A stretch of DNA of 64,000 bases from an uncultured bacterium (GTDB taxonomy: Bacteria; Patescibacteriota; Minisyncoccia; Phycocordibacterales; PALSA-1337). Shown piece by piece: positions 9,013 through 50,098 of this stretch. The translations under genes were made by a program, and so were the position numbers. The stretch lies in contig OY969557.1 in assembly GCA_963701025.1 (NCBI GenBank), positions 368,622 through 432,621 of the forward strand. Direction: 5' to 3'. Position 1 is the first letter of the stretch. Every line of letters begins with the position of its first letter. The notes beneath the pieces were generated by a model. The model was not told the origin of the DNA. It was given only the letters and a program-made list of their open reading frames with translations, and ran no database searches.

Positions 9013-10287
9013 TTAAGCGAGGATCGGCAAAGAGATCCTGAAAGTACTCCCTTCGCCCTCGGTACTCGTCACGGAGAGCTTGCCACCGTGGACTTCGGTG
9101 GACCACTTAGCTATGGCGAGTCCCAGGCCGGTGCCTTCGGGGTTCTTGTGCCGCGCCTCGGCGGACCGATAGAATCTCTCGAACACGTGCGAAAGGTCTT
9201 TTTCGGATATGCCGACACCGTCGTCGGCTATATCGATGTGCGCCCAGCGCCCTTTCTTCGATCCGCTGACGCGGACATGGCCGCCTTTCCGGCCGTACAA
9301 TATGGCGTTCTCGATGAGATTGACGAACAGCCGATCGAGGTATGTTCCATTGCCGGAAACGGAGACATCCGGAAGGCTTCCTATCTTCAGGGATATGCCT
9401 CTCTTCGCGGCGAAGCCCTCGCATCTTTTCGCCGCCTGCGCGACCGTCTGACGGAGGCCGGTCTCGATCATAGCCAGCTTTTCGCGCGATGAGTCCCATG
9501 ATGTGGTGAGCAGAGCCATGTCCGATATGAGTATGGTGAGATGCTTCACCTCGTGATCGATGGCGCGGAGCGCCCGCTTCGCCTCCGAGACGCTCGATGG
9601 ACCCGACTGCAGGACGAGGTCCACGTTGCCTTTTATGATGGCGAGCGGGGTCCGCAGCTCGTGCGTGGCATTGGACATGAACTCCGATCTCGTTTTTGAT
9701 TCTTTTATATTCGCCTCCTGTTCCGCCTCTTTCTGCATCGCTTCGTTCTCCTTCTTGATCAAGCTGTTGATCTTTATGGACCGCGCAGTAGAATGGCCGA
9801 GCGAGGCAGCGAGCGACCGATCAACATCGGAGAAGGCGCGCGGCCGCGTATAGCAGAGGACGATGCTACCGTAGAGGTCGGCCTTGTAGGCTATCGGCAC
9901 GATGACATAGCTCTTCATGTACGGGCTGACGTCGTACTTCTTCTCGTAGTTGCCGCTGACGACTTTCTCCATGAAAAAAGGAGACCGGCTCTTTGTGGCT
10001 TGAAAATTGCCTCCCCGTTCCCTCGGCAGATTGGGCTCATACGGCGTCTCCGGGCTCTTATATATGAGCCGATGCTTCGACTTCTCTCCCGTCTGCCACC
10101 AAGCGAATCCGTAATCGGCCTCCAATATCTCTATGCCGGCCCGGGTGAACAGCTCGACGATCTGCAACGTATCGTGAAAAGCCAGTCCATCCAAGATGGC
10201 CTGGTTCAATGAAGATATCTTTTTTGAGATGATATGTTCCATGTCTTTAAAAAATCCCGTCTTGGAGCATGTCCTGCGAGAGGGCAC
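9013..10287 (-). CDS. Cytoplasmic sensor histidine kinase with an N-terminal GAF-like domain
   Basis: H-box ATHELRTPL and HATPase_c motifs (GTGLGLAIAK...GSTFRISLP). No TM segments. Confidence 0.85.
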   Translation of the reverse strand: MPSRRTCSKTGFFKDMEHIISKKISSLNQAILDGLAFHDTLQIVELFTRAGIEILEADYGFAWWQTGEKSKHRLIYKSPETPYEPNLPRERGGNFQATKSRSPFFMEKVVSGNYEKKYDVSPYMKSYVIVPIAYKADLYGSIVLCYTRPRAFSDVDRSLAASLGHSTARSIKINSLIKKENEAMQKEAEQEANIKESKTRSEFMSNATHELRTPLAIIKGNVDLVLQSGPSSVSEAKRALRAIDHEVKHLTILISDMALLTTSWDSSREKLAMIETGLRQTVAQAAKRCEGFAAKRGISLKIGSLPDVSVSGNGTYLDRLFVNLIENAILYGRKGGHVRVSGSKKGRWAHIDIADDGVGISEKDLSHVFERFYRSAEARHKNPEGTGLGLAIAKWSTEVHGGKLSVTSTEGEGSTFRISLPILA

Positions 10288-10312
10288 GGCGGCAAGACGG
10301 GATATCAGGCTC

Positions 10313-11149
10313 TCAATGCGCCGCCGGCCTTTCCGGTTCCCGCTTCATGATCCTGATGAGGGAATAGGTCTGGTGGTAGTAGGCGTGCGTGCCGAGGATC
10401 TCGCAGGCGACAGCCGCGCCGCTCTTCTCGACGGCTTCGATCAGCTCGCCTTCGTCATATGGACGCGTGTCTCCCCAGACGACCAGCATACGATGGCTTC
10501 CCCATTCCTTCTGGCCGACATTGTCCTTGCGGAACGGATGCACTAGATAGATGCGCTTATCCGGATACGCGGGCGACTGATTCGCCAGGATCGACCCGAA
10601 CCGCTTCATGATCCTCTGCATCTTTGGCCTGCTTTGGACCTGAATGAACTGGCTAGCGAAGTAGATGACGCTCTGCGGCGCATCGAACTCGCCGTCGGAC
10701 CATGTCTCCTCGATCTCCCCTTTCTTCACGCGGACCGCGCCGCTTTTGACGAACTCCGGACAGAGGATATTGGAGACGCTGTCGCATCCAACCTGGCAGA
10801 CTTCCCGGATGGTGATGATGAAGCCTTGTTTCTTGGCATCCCTCACCCACCCGAGATCCCTGCACAGCCCCGCGCCCAAGATCTCGACGCGGAGATTCGT
10901 GCGCGCCGCACCCGCTTCGCGCGTGACATCGTCTATCTGGCCCGTCATGATGTCGCTCGAGAACCCCCCGAAGGACAGATTCTCTTGCAGGTAGTTCTCC
11001 TCGTTGATGATGCCCTCCGACAGCTTTCGGGGTGCCAAAGGGAAAGGATTGCCCTTTCCGGCCTTCAGCTTTCTGTTCCAATGATTTTCAAGCTCCAACT
11101 GCGCGGAAAGCCTCAAAGCAAGGTCTTGCCGCAAAGTGATCCCACTCAT
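10313..11149 (-). CDS. Conserved hypothetical protein with a Cys cluster, directly upstream of the GAF kinase in the same operon
   Basis: Long ORF with good coding character and a CQVGCDSVSNILCPEF motif. I recognise no family. Confidence 0.5.
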   Translation of the reverse strand: MSGITLRQDLALRLSAQLELENHWNRKLKAGKGNPFPLAPRKLSEGIINEENYLQENLSFGGFSSDIMTGQIDDVTREAGAARTNLRVEILGAGLCRDLGWVRDAKKQGFIITIREVCQVGCDSVSNILCPEFVKSGAVRVKKGEIEETWSDGEFDAPQSVIYFASQFIQVQSRPKMQRIMKRFGSILANQSPAYPDKRIYLVHPFRKDNVGQKEWGSHRMLVVWGDTRPYDEGELIEAVEKSGAAVACEILGTHAYYHQTYSLIRIMKREPERPAAH

Positions 11150-45420: not shown

Positions 45421-47350
45421 TTACCTCCTCCTCCCCCTCCCGGCCCTTAAAGCGTTCCCTATCGGAATAAAGTCGGTCAGGAAATTAAACGCCGCAGCGC
45501 CGGCTGGTCCTAAAACGCCCAGGCCGGGGATGCCGACGGTGACCCAGACGAGGCCGAAGGCGTTGGTCACGGCCCAGATGCCGAAGCATTGCCACATGAT
45601 GGCCCTGACCTGGCGGGCGGTCTTCATGGTCTCCGGCAGGCGGCGCAGGTGGTCGTGCATGATGGTGATGTCGGCCGCTTCGATGGCCGCGTCGGAGCCG
45701 ATGCCGCCCATGGCGATGCCAACGTCGGCCAGAGCCAATGAAGCCGCGTCATTCACCCCGTCGCCGATATAGGCGACGACTTCCGGTTCTTTCTCGCGCT
45801 CGAAACGGTTGACGAAAGCCACTTTCGATTCCGGCGTCATATTGGCATGGAAATGCCTGATGCCGAGCTCGCCGGCCACGGCCGCCGCGGCATGCTCGTT
45901 GTCGCCGGTCAGCATGTGCCATTCCTTGACTCCGTAAACTCCGGTTTCTGCAATGATGTCTTTGGCATGAGGACGCAATTCGTCGCGATATGACAGAAGA
46001 CCGGCCACTTCCCCGCCGATAGCCAGGACAACCACGCCGCGTCCGGCGTCTTTCTCCAGATCGATGTCTTTCTTTATTTGCTCGGGAATGCGCACGCCAT
46101 TGGACTCCATGAATGAAAGACGGCCGAGGAGCATGTGCTCATTGCCGTGGCTGTACGACACGCCCTGACCCGACACTTCCTCCGACTGATGCGGCGCGTG
46201 GATGGCGATATTCTTTGTCCTGATGTAATCGAGAATGGCCCGCGAGACCGCGTGCTTGGACTCCGAAGCGCCCATGCCGGCGCGGTTCAGGACCGTATTC
46301 GCGGAGAAAGCGCCATACGTCTTCACCTCCACTATCTTCGGCTTGCCCCGGGTCAAAGTGCCGGTCTTGTCGGTCAATATGTATTTCGTCCGAGAAAGCT
46401 GTTCAAAAGCGGCCGAGCCTTTGACGATGACGCCGCGCTTGGCGGTGCGGGCGATAGCGGAGGTGAAAGCCAATGGCACGGCCACGGCGATGTCGTCGGC
46501 GCAGACCACGAGAAGGATGGCCAGTATCTCATTCGGAGACAGGCCATAGAGATAGAGGGCGAATGAGCCCGCGAGCGACAGACCTATGTACCACTGGGTG
46601 AAAGTATCAGCCACTCGCTCGGCCCGGCTCTTTGACCGGCTGGCCTCTTCGACCAGAGCCATGATGCGGGCCAGCGTCGAATCCTTGCCGATCTTCTCGG
46701 CCCTGACCACAAGCGAGCCGCTCTCGTTCACCGTGGCGGTGAAGACGCTGCTACCGGCTTTTTTCGGCACGAGCTCGCTCTCGCCGGTCAGCGACGACTC
46801 GTCGACCTCGGCTTCGCCGGAGACGACCGTGCCGTCGACAGGCATGCGATCGCCGGATTCGACCACTATATGGTCGCCGACTTTGACCTGGCTGATGTGT
46901 ATATCTCTGACCGTCTCGCCGTCTTGGATGCGGACGTTCTCGACGTGATATTTCATCAAGCTCTCGATGACCTTCTTGGCCCGAGATCTGGGTGACATGA
47001 TCGAAGACCCGGGCGCAGGCCAGCATGAGGGTGATGAAGGCGGCCGAAGACCACTGATGGGCAAGGAGCGAGAAAGCTAGGGCGACCGACGCTAGAAGGT
47101 CGACCGAGACGCGCCTGTGGGCGATCGACTTCGCGGCGCTTATAAGGACCGGGATGAGGCCGAGGAAAGAAAGGACGGCGAGGATGATGGTCAGGATGGG
47201 CTTCACTCCCGCCGGAAATGGCATGAAAAGAGCGATGAGTGAAAGAGTCGTGAGTGCGATGAGGAAGATGTCGAAGGTGAATAGGAATCTGCCGCTACGG
47301 CCGATCTTGGCGGCGGCTTTGGATTCCTGGCAGGCTGTAGCAGAGAACAT
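45421..47350 (-). pseudogene. Cation-transporting P-type ATPase split by a frameshift near 46950-47000
   Basis: An N-terminal TM ORF (47350-46751) and an ORF 47064-45421 containing DKTGTLT, TGDN and GDGVNDA motifs. The frames are displaced by one nucleotide. Confidence 0.6.
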
Positions 47351-47357
47351 GGGGATA

Positions 47358-48365
47358 TTATAGCAGGTATGCCGATCTTAACTTCTCGATTTGGGCTTTT
47401 AGTTTATGACTATTGCCGTGACTGATCAGACCGAGATAAGACTGTACGGTCTCCGCTTTTCCGCCTTTTTCCTCGATCGTTCTAAACATCTTCCGCTTCG
47501 TTGCAGTTCGTAGCACACGATGATCCGTAAAATTGATCCATCCGAGGTAGTCGACGCCGGAGGCAATGGTGCGTATGGATATTTTCTTGGGATGTAAATG
47601 AAGGTGTAATCTGTCGTTCAAAAAAGATCGTATCTGCGGAATGAGCCCGACAAGCCAGTCCCGATCTGATGAGAAGAGAACGAAATCATCGGCGTAGCGG
47701 ATATAGTATTTTGCTTTAAGTTTGTGCTTCACGAACTGATCGAACTCATTCATGTAGATATTGACTAGGAGCTGTGAAGTGAGGTTGCCGAGAGGTAGAC
47801 CGATGCCGTCGGCAGTCGAGTGAAAGCTGCCAATGATTTCAGAGAGGAGCCAGATAATATCCTTGTCTGGAATATAATCTTTGATGATTTCAACGAGTAC
47901 TCTCTGGTCAATAGATGCGAAGAATTTCTTGATGTCGCATTTAAGCACCCAAGCAGTCTGCGTGTGATTCTGCGTCACTTTGTATGAAAAATCTCGGAAT
48001 CGGTTTACTGCTTCATGTGTCCCCTTTCCGAACCTGCATGAAAATGAATCCGCAATGAATATCTTGTCGAAAAAGATATGGAGTTCACGATAGATTGCGT
48101 GATGAAGTAGCCTGTCTCTCACGCTCGCCTTGTGGATGTTCCTCGGCTTTGGGTCGGATATATTGAACGCTTCGTATGATGAATGCTTGTAAGTCTTTGC
48201 CACAAGGTCATTATGAAGCGAAATTATATTGTCCATCAGATTTCGTTCGAATGTCTGAACGTCTTTTCTGGCCCGTTTTCCTTTCACGAACTCTTTCCAT
48301 GCCTCGATGATATTTTCGAGGGAAATGATATGATTGTAGCCATGTCCAAATTGAATCCGTCGCAT
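47358..48365 (-). CDS. DGR-type reverse transcriptase
   Basis: RT domains 1-7 with YADDFV. The DGR-diagnostic motif 4 is GIGLPLGNLTSQ (SQ instead of the group II SP). The N-terminus (FNISDPKPRNIHKASVRDRLLHHAI...SFSCRFGKGTHEAV) is typical of DGR RTs. No maturase or endonuclease domain. Confidence 0.85.
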   Translation of the reverse strand: MRRIQFGHGYNHIISLENIIEAWKEFVKGKRARKDVQTFERNLMDNIISLHNDLVAKTYKHSSYEAFNISDPKPRNIHKASVRDRLLHHAIYRELHIFFDKIFIADSFSCRFGKGTHEAVNRFRDFSYKVTQNHTQTAWVLKCDIKKFFASIDQRVLVEIIKDYIPDKDIIWLLSEIIGSFHSTADGIGLPLGNLTSQLLVNIYMNEFDQFVKHKLKAKYYIRYADDFVLFSSDRDWLVGLIPQIRSFLNDRLHLHLHPKKISIRTIASGVDYLGWINFTDHRVLRTATKRKMFRTIEEKGGKAETVQSYLGLISHGNSHKLKAQIEKLRSAYLL

Positions 48366-48378
48366 GTCAGAGAAGTCG

Positions 48379-48389
48379 CCCCCCCCCCC
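48379..48389 (+). repeat. C11/G11 homopolymer in the ~40-bp gap between the divergent avd and RT starts
   Basis: Read directly. Confidence 0.9.
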
Positions 48390-48406
48390 ACGGATTTTTA
48401 CCTGTA

Positions 48407-48760
48407 TTGAGTAAGGTGAAAGAAACATATTTGTTGTGGTATGGATATTACCAGATTTTACCCAAGGCACACAGGCATTCCCTTGGACAGAGGATTGACG
48501 GCCTTTTTATCGAAGTCATAGAGGCCATAACTGCCGCCAGTTTCTTGTCTCCCATTGAAAAACATCCGTATGTCCGGTTGGCCATCAAAAAGACCGACAC
48601 GCTCAAGGTCTTGCTCATGGTTCTGTGGGAGACCAAATCGCTTGATGACAAGAAATATATAGCCCTGTCGGTGAAGTTGGACGAGATAGGCAAGAATCTG
48701 GGCGGCTGGAACGGACAACTCACAAGACAAAACTCCCCCGTAAAAACGAGGGAGAAATGA
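48407..48760 (+). CDS. Accessory variability determinant (Avd)-like four-helix-bundle protein, encoded on the strand opposite to the RT, TR and VR
   Basis: 117 aa. LPKAHRHSLGQRIDGLFIEVIEAITAAS and a C-terminal KLDEIGKNLGGW resemble bAvd (…IAEVGRILGSWI) and the TIGR02436 family. TTG/GTG start. Confidence 0.7.
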   Translation: MSKVKETYLLWYGYYQILPKAHRHSLGQRIDGLFIEVIEAITAASFLSPIEKHPYVRLAIKKTDTLKVLLMVLWETKSLDDKKYIALSVKLDEIGKNLGGWNGQLTRQNSPVKTREK

Positions 48761-48766
48761 AGAGAG

Positions 48767-48890
48767 TTGCGGACACCGCAGCCGGATTGTTGGAGTTCCA
48801 GTCGTTGTCGAGCCAGTTGTTGCTCCAAATCCACCTGTCGCCGTTCCAGTTGAGGTAACGGACGTAGAGGTTGCCGTCAGAGTTGCGGTA
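48767..48890 (-). repeat. DGR template repeat (TR)
   Basis: 124 nt, 111/124 identical to the VR. On the minus strand it reads ...YRNSDGNLYVRYLNWNGDRWIWSNNWLDNDWNSNNPAAVSA with many AAC codons. Confidence 0.85.
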
Positions 48891-49171
48891 TCGTACGGGA
48901 CGCCTTCCGTGCCACCACCCCTTGAATGCTCTCAGGGTTGAATCGTATCCGGCATCGAAATGCCCTAGCGCCTCGTACCAAGTATGTTCATTTTTTAATG
49001 AAGTTCTGCATGCACCACTCTACCCAAAACCTTGGTCTTGCCCAAAGGGTCAATGTGCTCATTGAGATACGCTCGATGCATGGATACTGGATTCGGTAGC
49101 GAGAAACCGTGGTCGCCCGCATATTCACCTACTACCGCACTCGATTCTAGCATATTTATATAAATGACAAA

Positions 49172-49193
49172 CCCCAAGCCGAATTGCTTGGGG
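49172..49193 (-). terminator. Perfect 8-bp hairpin (ccccaagc-cgaatt-gcttgggg) between the target gene and the TR
   Basis: Read directly. On the minus strand it is followed by tttgtcattt. Confidence 0.45.
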
Positions 49194-49290
49194 TGAAGTT
49201 ATACGCATATCTTCAAGAGCGTTTGTTTTCTTATCGCAAGGACAAAGGTCAAAGTGACTGAAGCAGTCCACAGTAACCAAGTCCAGAGTG

Positions 49291-49911
49291 CTAACTTGCG
49301 GACACCGCAGCCGGATTGTTGGAGTGCCAGTCGCCGTCGAGCCAGAGGCTGCTCCAAAGACACCTGTCGCCGTGCCAGCTGAGGTAACGGACGTAGAGGT
49401 CGCCGTCAGAGCGGCGGTAAACCGTTCCCCAGAAGAAGATGTAGCGGGTGTTCCCATTGCCATCAACCTTCCAAGAATCCGGAATCAACTGCGGATGCTC
49501 ACGGAGGTAATCCAGAACATTGGCGTTCAGCACCGGTTGCTTCGACACTTCCTTGCGGAGGTCGTTGCCCTCGATGCGTCCACCTTTCTTCTGCGGCTTC
49601 GACAAGTAGAAGTCAATCTTCTTGCCGTCGAGGTAGAGGTCGGCTCCCCGGCGTTCGAGCTTGGCAACCTTGCCCTTCTGGTGTTCTTCCACCTTCCAGC
49701 CGTCAGGCAGAAAGGGGTCGGCACCGAGGTCAATTGCATACTCGACGGGCTTGATTTCATACAAGCCGAGTTTTACGCCCCTCACTTGGCCGAGGAAATC
49801 CCCGACGGTGAGCGCTTTGACTTCTTCCAATGATTGGAAACCGTTGCGGTTGAATGCGTGTTCCAGCTCTTGAGCCAGACCGACACCGAGTGTTAACCTG
49901 TTATTATCCAT
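49291..49911 (-). CDS. DGR target protein with the C-terminal variable region (C-type lectin/FGE-like fold inferred)
   Basis: The C-terminus is ...YIFFWGTVYRRSDGDLYVRYLSWHGDRCLWSSLWLDGDWHSNNPAAVSAS. The VR occupies the last ~41 codons. Start chosen at ATG 49911 (MDNNRL). Confidence 0.75.
   Translation of the reverse strand: MDNNRLTLGVGLAQELEHAFNRNGFQSLEEVKALTVGDFLGQVRGVKLGLYEIKPVEYAIDLGADPFLPDGWKVEEHQKGKVAKLERRGADLYLDGKKIDFYLSKPQKKGGRIEGNDLRKEVSKQPVLNANVLDYLREHPQLIPDSWKVDGNGNTRYIFFWGTVYRRSDGDLYVRYLSWHGDRCLWSSLWLDGDWHSNNPAAVSAS
49296..49419 (-). repeat. DGR variable repeat (VR) at the 3' end of the target gene
   Basis: 13 mismatches to the TR, 12 of them at TR adenines (coding strand): TR AAC codons become CGC, GAC, AGC, CAC, GGC and CTC. 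The 3' GC-rich segment with the tgcgg-aca-ccgca hairpin is shared (IMH-like). Confidence 0.85.
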
Positions 49912-50098
49912 AACGTGTTCTTTCTCTGTTTCGTGGACATGTCCTTTTCGAGGACTGGTCCAAGCTGTTGGGCTCAAGCTTCGTGCTTTTGCCACAGCAG
50001 AGAATGGCCTATAAATAAGCCGCTTTCTGCCGTGGCAAACGCAAGTTAGGCTATCAAGGAGCTTTACTCTGCCATTATACTACCAATTAGTACCAATG

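Follow-up and report, generated by a model that had tools for sequence, protein, structure and literature searches.

How is a diversity-generating retroelement (DGR) kept from rewriting a receptor that already works? Control matters because unchecked mutagenesis of a working receptor is costly, and to our knowledge the control of DGR activity is largely unknown. The question is raised by the 64-kb stretch of DNA analyzed here (the window), in which an Avd-like ORF runs opposite to a reverse transcriptase (RT) and a run of 11 cytosines lies between the Avd core and the RT start. The first-pass annotation had taken this for an atypical DGR architecture and had proposed that the run could phase-vary one or both genes.

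Results

A DGR in the layout usual for its clade

The core features of the element are as follows.

49291–49995, minus strand: target gene, a 234-aa ORF from the ORF list, with the variable repeat (VR) at its C-terminal end
49296–49419, minus strand: VR, 124-nt direct repeat shared with the template repeat (TR)
49171–49194, minus strand: terminator-like hairpin (GC hairpin plus T run) downstream of the target gene
48767–48890, minus strand: TR, 124-nt direct repeat shared with the VR
48407–48760, plus strand: Avd core, four-helix-bundle accessory protein (Pfam bAvd match below the cut-off)
48379–48389, no strand assigned: C11/G11 simple-sequence repeat, proposed phase switch, poly-Pro on the avd strand
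47358–48365, minus strand: DGR RT, 335 aa from ATG 48365 (RVT_1, E 1.5e-23)

TR and VR are 90% identical over 124 nt, and 12 of their 13 mismatches fall at a plus-strand T, equivalent to a minus-strand adenine, which places both repeats in the minus sense; the same adenine-biased mismatch pattern occurs in 97 related loci. The VR (49419–49296) ends 3 nt ahead of the stop codon of the 234-aa target ORF, for which no Pfam match was found, and the GC hairpin and T run that follow this gene occupy the same position in most related loci (alignment A1). The RT translation contains LGNLTSQ together with YADD, corresponding to the [I/V/L]GxxxSQ signature of DGR RTs (PMC7826257) and the YxDD box. With its adenine-biased TR/VR pair, its RT signature and a VR at the 3′ end of the target ORF, the window element is a DGR. 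Pfam bAvd matches its 117-aa Avd-like ORF with an E-value of 3.7e-9 and a score of 37.5 bits, slightly below the threshold of 40 bits, and PF22296 is precomputed both on protein P0001, which is 99% identical to the window Avd, and on 120/120 of the homologues listed.

Scans with the RT as query against species-representative genomes and against metagenomes returned 80 loci from each, almost all from Patescibacteria/CPR and with RT identities of 58–71%; 140 of them had 200 nt or more of DNA upstream. In every one of these (140/140) avd is divergent from RT, and in nearly all loci with a detectable TR the repeat ends 0–25 nt from the avd stop, most commonly at 6 nt. This layout is already defined, in passages of Wu et al. 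(2018, NAR; PMC5758913), as architecture B3, TR-(avd)-RT, which is given there as present in 90% of CPR DGRs; the window shows the same order (TR, avd, RT) and the same inversion of avd relative to the other two. The arrangement is therefore atypical solely against the textbook arrangement of the Bordetella phage, and the three traits singled out by the first-pass annotation are what members of this clade normally have: avd is inverted, the TR adjoins its stop, and a repeat separates the Avd core from RT. The coordinates behind that description were verified: avd lies on the plus strand against a minus-strand VR, TR and RT, 6 nt separate its TGA (48758–48760) from the TR start at 48767, and C11 occupies 48379–48389. 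At least 7,991 RT homologues were counted at E ≤ 1e-60.

A repeat conserved in place while its sequence changes

C11 is the sole homopolymer of at least 9 nt in the window, which has a GC content of 53.5%. At the homologous site, 116 of the 140 related loci carry G8–G14 on the RT strand, with lengths of 9–11 commonest and a strand polarity of 116:0. Set against the 7 G/C runs of at least 8 nt present in 1.0 Mb of flanking DNA, this amounts to an enrichment of ~1,600-fold, and the tract lies at a tightly clustered distance of 16–18 nt from the Avd core. About 10 loci bear a different repeat at the same site, namely (GT)8–16, (CTGG)6–10, (GTTC)9, (GA)10 or (GATTGCT)11, some of these repeats reaching lengths of 24–77 nt. 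The repeat units at the tract site measure 1, 2, 4 and 7 nt, none a multiple of 3, and all leave the avd strand open; the 7-mer has a stop on the RT strand. Such retention of repetitiveness while the sequence changes is the mark of selection for mutability.

Codon evidence for an avd start upstream of the tract

The position of the avd start decides whether the tract is a spacer or part of the gene. Two further features bear on it.

48342–48410, plus strand: 5′ segment of the avd ORF in its current OFF frame, from ATG 48342 to TGA 48408–48410, reading MSKLNPSHVREVAPPPTDFYLY
48307–48334, plus strand: promoter-like site (TG + TATGAT, pattern only), ending 7 nt before ATG 48342

The Avd N-terminus is conserved as (I/L)-L-P-V-L-Q-K-V-K without a conserved start codon. 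The first Leu of LPVLQKVK is encoded by TTG, TTA or CTN, a synonymous variation typical of codons inside a gene and not of a start, and a start at the TTG within ‘TTTTGCC’ was ruled out because roughly half of the loci have TTA or CTN there. Further upstream, ATG 48342 is antisense to RT codon 8 (CAT, His). This His8 is encoded by CAT in 101/105 loci, whereas CAT makes up 58% in the remainder of these RTs (Fisher, 4e-18), and a CAT codon here supplies an ATG on the avd strand. RT codons 1–7 likewise avoid TTA, CTA and TCA (0/77, vs 23% elsewhere; p 3e-9), which keeps the antisense frame on the avd strand open, as it is across these codons in 105/105 loci. These codon statistics ignore phylogenetic relatedness, although protein identity between the sequences is no higher than 60–70%.

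In each of the 116 tract loci, an ORF opening with ATG continues across the tract and into avd in one frame or more. Avd homologues of 129–143 aa that begin M.ELN..H...TPPP.RILPVL are numerous among public gene calls, and in some database Avds the repeat encodes THTHTH, SQPASQPA or RERERE. Together, the codon evidence indicates a predicted avd start at ATG 48342, with the repeat inside the avd ORF. On this assignment avd and RT would overlap head-to-head by ~24 nt, and the 41-nt ‘gap’ would be coding on the avd strand. The spacer previously reported between the two genes thus keeps its length, exactly 41 nt from RT ATG 48365 to TTG 48407, and loses its character as a non-coding gap, since the avd start is placed at 48342 within the RT coding region. 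Current avd calls of 108–117 aa in such genomes, and RT calls of 356 aa such as that of the source annotation, which reads through G11, are probably wrong.

No Shine-Dalgarno sequence precedes the avd start ATG in 105 loci, including ATG 48342 in the window, so that initiation would need to be leaderless or otherwise unusual. The TG + TATGAT site, which falls within the antisense of the conserved RT ‘xDIIS’ codons, may drive such a leaderless avd mRNA.

Repeat length sets the avd reading frame

At C11, ORFs from ATG 48330, 48342 and 48364 all end early and the window is scored OFF: the ORF from ATG 48342 stops at TGA 48408–48410 and that from ATG 48364 at TAA 48412–48414. The Avd core is in frame with ATG 48342 or 48330 at C9 and C12, and with ATG 48364 at C10 and C13. 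Computed products are a 139- or 138-aa Avd from ATG 48342 at C12 or C9, respectively, and a 131- or 132-aa Avd from the second ATG, 48364, at C10 or C13. C11 is the one length class predicted to be OFF. The earlier suspicion that the tract hides a different gene structure was well founded in this respect, since with one extra C the Avd becomes 139 aa long and its ORF overlaps the start of RT. Another contig of this genome bears a second DGR, which likewise has C11 and is OFF.

Near-clonal contigs were then compared for repeat length (contigs; identity; alleles).

P0198: 5 contigs from 5 samples; 99.9–100%; G11, G9, G10, G11, G11
P0159: 6 contigs; 99.94–100%; G9 in three (141 aa), G10 in three (40 aa)
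P0122: 3 contigs; 99.75–99.83%; (GT)n lengths differing by 4 and 6 nt
L001 and L081: 99.7% identical; G11 vs G8, both in the same frame (OFF)
P0147, tract-less control: 4 contigs; 99.7–99.9%; no repeat, always in frame, 138 aa

Contigs of the P0198 set have identical RTs, and G9 is the sole allele among them to encode a 138-aa Avd when read from the canonical ATG. Five comparisons within the P0159 set comprised three in which the indel is the sole difference, one identical pair and one with a single substitution. The P0122 contigs differ by zero substitutions, and one allele is in frame (137 aa). The control contigs, conversely, show 3–6 substitutions and no indel. In silico, repeat length thus flips the avd ORF between ~140 aa (ON) and ~22–50 aa (OFF), this variation being read from the assembly consensus of relatives, in which poly-G is error-prone. 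A contig near-identical to the window locus was found neither by exact Avd and RT look-ups (including P0001 and P0121) nor by the genome and metagenome scans, which also returned no relative above 71% RT identity; the tract polymorphism is accordingly shown in other strains.

A contingency locus driven by simple-sequence repeats is characterized by a non-triplet repeat within an ORF or promoter and by repeat lengths that vary among near-identical genomes; the tract site has such a repeat, and four sets of relatives show the length variation. The slipped-strand phase variation put forward by the first-pass annotation is supported; the proposed route through a divergent non-coding spacer is not, as the repeat lies inside the avd ORF and the switch would be translational. 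We consider it probable, from sequence comparison, that Avd, and hence DGR mutagenesis, is phase-variable through a repeat within the avd ORF, and that the window allele is OFF.

Among the 116 tract loci, avd is in frame in 31 (27%), vs 39% expected for random frames, and a preference for the ON frame was rejected on these figures. The 27% suits a ‘default OFF’ state and equally suits a model in which frame is irrelevant. Tract-less loci with a scorable frame are in frame in 6/9 cases.

The RT side of the tract and competing explanations

The tract may also act on RT. An ATG follows it in 77 loci, the window included, with 13 nt as the commonest spacing; RT ATG 48365 sits at this conserved position, 13 nt past the tract. 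The remaining 39 loci have no ATG after the tract, and 28 of these 39 lack a start codon of any kind, so that their RT ORF has to read through the repeat as poly-Gly. The proposal that the tract shifts the RT N-terminus applies to the subset of relatives without a post-tract ATG and probably does not apply to the window. Where RT and Avd each have one permissive frame, weak start codons included, the two coincide in 9/10 loci, a small sample that suggests a joint switch.

Promoter spacing offers a different reading of the same region: the repeat would be a transcriptional element in the promoter or 5′ UTR of RT, avd or both, with avd starting after the tract, as the first-pass annotation had assumed, and length tuning the promoter spacing. 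Promoter switches built on poly-G/C and (TA)n occur in Neisseria and Haemophilus. Here, a TAnnnT hexamer adjoins the 3′ end of the G run in 45/116 loci (39%, vs 1.6% background), and in 20 of these 45 the RT ATG lies exactly 7 nt past the box; two other G10 runs in locus L005 directly precede TATAAT or TGATAT plus the ATG of unrelated genes; and the tight clustering of the core-to-tract distance also speaks for it. The window, however, reads CGACTT at this position and has no -10-like TAnnnT box, the upstream ‘GGYAAAA’ motif is accounted for by Ile/Leu-Leu-Pro codons, and repeats of 24–77 nt cannot be a -35/-10 spacer. The reading also leaves unexplained the CAT bias at His8, the avoidance of antisense stops, the repeat units that are never multiples of three and the long in-frame database proteins. 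The same two grounds led us to abandon, as the main model, a sigma-70 promoter in which ‘CTGGCA’ would be the -35 and the G run would be the spacer: the Ile/Leu-Leu-Pro codons explain the motif, and the long repeats do not suit a spacer. We regard a transcriptional element as an unlikely account of the tract, although a transcriptional effect may be an added role on the RT side, where a promoter role is possible. In relatives with the repeat read as RT poly-Gly, or placed directly upstream of an RT -10-like box, both partners may be gated.

Recoding at the RNA level would instead make the DNA frame immaterial. Polymerase slippage, ribosomal frameshifting or an EF-P-dependent poly-proline stall would then supply low, roughly constant Avd from any allele, in keeping with assembly frames that are near random (27% ON) and with poly-C encoding Pro in all three frames. 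Homopolymers of at least 9 nt are known slippage sites. Against this, the di-, tetra- and heptanucleotide repeats found at the same site in ~10 loci are poor substrates for transcriptional slippage, DNA length differences dominate the variation among near-identical contigs, and tract-less loci are mostly in frame. As the explanation of the tract we judge recoding improbable.

Least likely by far, and very improbable, is that C11 arose as a homopolymer error in sequencing or assembly, or that avd is mis-oriented by an inversion mis-assembly: exact tract length in any single assembly is inherently uncertain and a nearby P-type ATPase gene in the window appears frameshifted, yet avd has the same orientation in 140/140 independent assemblies, the tract is kept in 116 of 140 across many projects and assemblers, and the architecture is published as B3 (PMC5758913), so that an artefact is effectively refuted for tract existence and orientation alike and only n = 11 is correctable by reads.

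The TR lies in a putative structured small RNA

Phase variation of Avd through a repeat in its ORF, our preferred reading, concerns the protein arm of the element; the template arm is also distinctively organized. Three features between the target gene and avd are relevant.

49144–49152, minus strand: extended -10-like promoter TGCTAGAAT for the TR RNA (pattern only)
48891–49137, minus strand: structured 5′ leader of the TR RNA, ~235–245 nt, its 5′ end placed from the promoter
48723–48754, minus strand: intrinsic-terminator-like hairpin (48754–48733) plus T tail, antisense in the avd 3′ end

The spacer between VR and TR is 80–93% identical in nucleotides between loci whose RTs are 60–70% identical. 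A protein-coding gene in this spacer was rejected, because the similarity extends to all six frames and to the nucleotide sequence itself. Aligning 95 sequences revealed, in order, the target-gene terminator, a box with the consensus TTnTGnTAnAAT, and a conserved RNA of ~235 nt extending up to the TR; the TTnTGnTAnAAT consensus is conserved over these 95 sequences, just upstream of the conserved RNA. The RNAalifold structure of the leader comprises 57 pairs in 15 helices, with 93.3% paired, vs 36–53% when partners are slid by 1–3 columns, and 51 of the 57 pairs show compensatory changes on both sides. Its covariation score of 0.645 compares with 0.10–0.17 in the slid controls, and 0/500 shuffles reach 0.645. 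Rfam 15 gave no match at E ≤ 1 in 48650–49250; at the gathering threshold, the window yields two tRNAs only.

At the other end, a terminator-like hairpin with a T tail lies on the TR-sense strand, 13 nt past the TR. A terminator-like element of this kind is present in 90/131 loci, vs 2/131 on the other strand and 7/131 in shuffles, with stems that differ between loci, and it coincides with an unusually conserved Avd tail, ...QNSPxKxGEK. The TR thus seems to form the 3′ portion of a separate small RNA convergent with avd. That its putative terminator is embedded, on the TR-sense strand, in the 3′ end of avd is offered as the reason why the TR abuts avd.

Discussion

We propose that a CPR-type B3 DGR would consist of three compact transcription units, TR RNA, avd and RT. 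The minus-strand TR RNA would have its own extended -10, a structured leader of ~235 nt, the TR and an intrinsic terminator antisense in the last avd codons. The avd ORF would run from ATG 48342, antisense through the first RT codons, then as Pro-Pro-Pro over the C tract and into the core, LPVLSKVK.... Slipped-strand mispairing in replication would add or remove repeat units and, because the tract is non-triplet and lies inside the avd ORF, each gain or loss would shift the avd frame, bringing it in or out. In Bordetella phage BPP-1, Avd is needed for cDNA synthesis by bRT (PMC7826257). If Avd is equally needed here, adenine mutagenesis of the target would be a heritable and reversible ON/OFF trait, such that an OFF majority would keep the current VR allele and an in-frame minority would diversify.

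The sequences show the anatomy of the element, the conservation of the repeat, the codon signatures of an avd start before the tract, and the length polymorphism of near-clonal relatives with its effect on the ORF. Other links of this model, the switching rate among them, are inferred: OFF alleles would yield no functional Avd, Avd would be essential in this clade, and ATG 48342 would be the start used in vivo. OFF alleles might keep nearly full-length Avd through the in-frame TTG (48407) or weak post-tract starts, and RNA polymerase slippage on C9–C14 could restore the frame in some transcripts and blur the DNA phase.

A wider picture can be drawn, tentatively and with somewhat less conviction than the switch itself, in which hypermutation is phase-variable across a very large Patescibacteria DGR clade. 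One hypermutable repeat would sit in the head-to-head overlap of avd and RT, read as poly-Pro in Avd and, in a subset, as poly-Gly in RT with the two frames co-phased; RT-Avd would be on stochastically in a minority of cells, with the receptor variant locked elsewhere; and the template would be a separate small RNA in which a new structured 5′ domain replaces the 3′ Sp.

If this is true, a repeat that gates Avd ON and OFF would be a simple answer to the control problem for the most DGR-rich part of the tree, and DGR-finding pipelines could class loci as ON or OFF. The covariation-supported leader would give a second, differently organized DGR template RNA to compare with that of BPP-1. Our searches found no literature in which simple-sequence repeats, homopolymers or phase variation are tied to DGRs or Avd, although a mention in Paul et al. 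2017 is possible, and none linking CPR/Patescibacteria with phase variation. The word ‘promoter’ is absent from the text of PMC5758913, and in the passages considered here the repeat, the head-to-head ORF overlap and the TR-RNA leader go undescribed.

Comparison with known systems

The BPP-1 element (mtd-avd-TR-Sp-brt) resembles that of the window in its [I/V/L]GxxxSQ RT with an Avd partner, in TR/VR differences specific to adenine and in the VR at the 3′ end of the target gene. It differs in being collinear, with avd upstream of the TR on the same strand, whereas avd in the window is inverted, and its avd has no repeat gate. Template RNA of BPP-1 requires flanking non-coding sequence, and its functional non-coding Sp lies 3′ of the TR (PMC7826257); in the window, the structured RNA is 5′ of the TR and a terminator hairpin alone follows it. 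CPR B3 DGRs, as presented in passages of PMC5758913, share the gene order and orientation of the window.

On the side of the switch, the nearest counterparts are the simple-sequence-repeat contingency loci and phasevarions of Neisseria, Haemophilus and Campylobacter (PMC5084427, PMC5909438, PMC11868660), which likewise carry a non-triplet repeat in the 5′ part of an ORF, with repeat lengths that differ between near-clonal genomes and toggle the reading frame. Phasevarions gate a cytoplasmic enzyme whose downstream effects reach the whole population (PMC5084427, PMC5909438, PMC11868660), and the gated protein of the window may be likened to it. Unlike these loci, the gate here would be placed on an accessory subunit of targeted mutagenesis and would control the making of further variation, the repeat lies within a head-to-head overlap with the partner gene, and the hosts are uncultivated CPR bacteria.

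At hifA/hifB of Haemophilus influenzae, (TA)n between divergent genes alters the -35/-10 spacing and affects both genes. The two systems are alike in having one repeat between two divergent genes of a single system; the hifA/hifB switch is transcriptional, whereas the main signature in the window is translational. As far as checked, placing a contingency-locus gate on the accessory protein of a DGR combines two known kinds in a new way.

Gene calls and predicted start of avd

The C11/G11 tract (48379-48389), the proposed phase switch inside the avd ORF, is spanned in the source annotation by a 356-aa RT (P0121) that uses an upstream start and reads G11 as GGGG (window 48366-48470, minus strand), and the annotated Avd is a 108-aa protein whose start lies downstream of TTG 48407. 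Both gene models are probably tract artefacts. The predicted avd start is instead ATG 48342, preceded by the following element:

48307-48334, plus strand: promoter-like site (TG + TATGAT), ending 7 nt upstream of ATG 48342

This site is the antisense of the conserved 'DIIS' codons of RT. A Shine-Dalgarno sequence before the predicted avd ATG was found at none of 105 loci. Judged from the sequence, the promoter-like site 7 nt before ATG 48342 suggests that the avd mRNA is leaderless.

A second DGR of the same genome lies outside the window, with an Avd that is 74% identical; the Logan contig carrying its protein P0083 is L161, and P0083 is also encoded on the window's 876-kb source contig. This DGR, too, has a C11 tract and is one C out of frame; in contig L161 its RT appears frameshifted.

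Poly-G runs and neighbouring genes

Additional G10 runs were observed away from the DGR at L005:3404, L005:5253 and L096:4138, where L005 and L096 are related loci. Those of L005 are directly followed by TATAAT or TGATAT, with the ATG of another gene ~6 nt further on. These genomes may use poly-G beside a -10 box more generally as a switch.

Adjoining RT, a P-type ATPase gene (45421-47350, minus strand) is seemingly divided into two overlapping ORFs of 547 aa and 199 aa. On the sequence, this split points to a frameshift, a pseudogene or an assembly error; visual inspection of the stretch at the ORF junction (46740-47070) showed no long homopolymer. Related locus L064 carries a second avd/TR copy (10256-10513 and 10519-10818; 97% identical over 258 nt) ~6 kb downstream of its first DGR on the same contig, which may be a duplicated cassette. 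In the (GT)n-bearing lake-metagenome DGR of L178-L180, a phage-integrase-family gene (1733-2402) lies directly downstream of RT, hinting that some of these DGR cassettes sit on mobile elements.

RNA elements flanking TR

Three minus-strand elements surround TR:

48723-48754, minus strand: intrinsic-terminator-like hairpin with T tail, directly after TR, antisense and inside the avd 3' end
48891-49137, minus strand: conserved structured RNA of ~235 nt, immediately 5' of TR
49144-49152, minus strand: conserved extended -10 box, preceding the leader RNA

Compensatory stems preserve the hairpin in 90 of 131 relatives, and its position coincides with that of the conserved Avd C-terminal tail QNSPxKxGEK. 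The leader RNA is supported by covariation in A1, a 95-sequence alignment of the VR-TR spacer region, and has no entry in Rfam 15. Functionally, it may correspond to Sp, the functional non-coding region 3' of TR in the Bordetella phage BPP-1 DGR, although Sp lies on the opposite side of TR.
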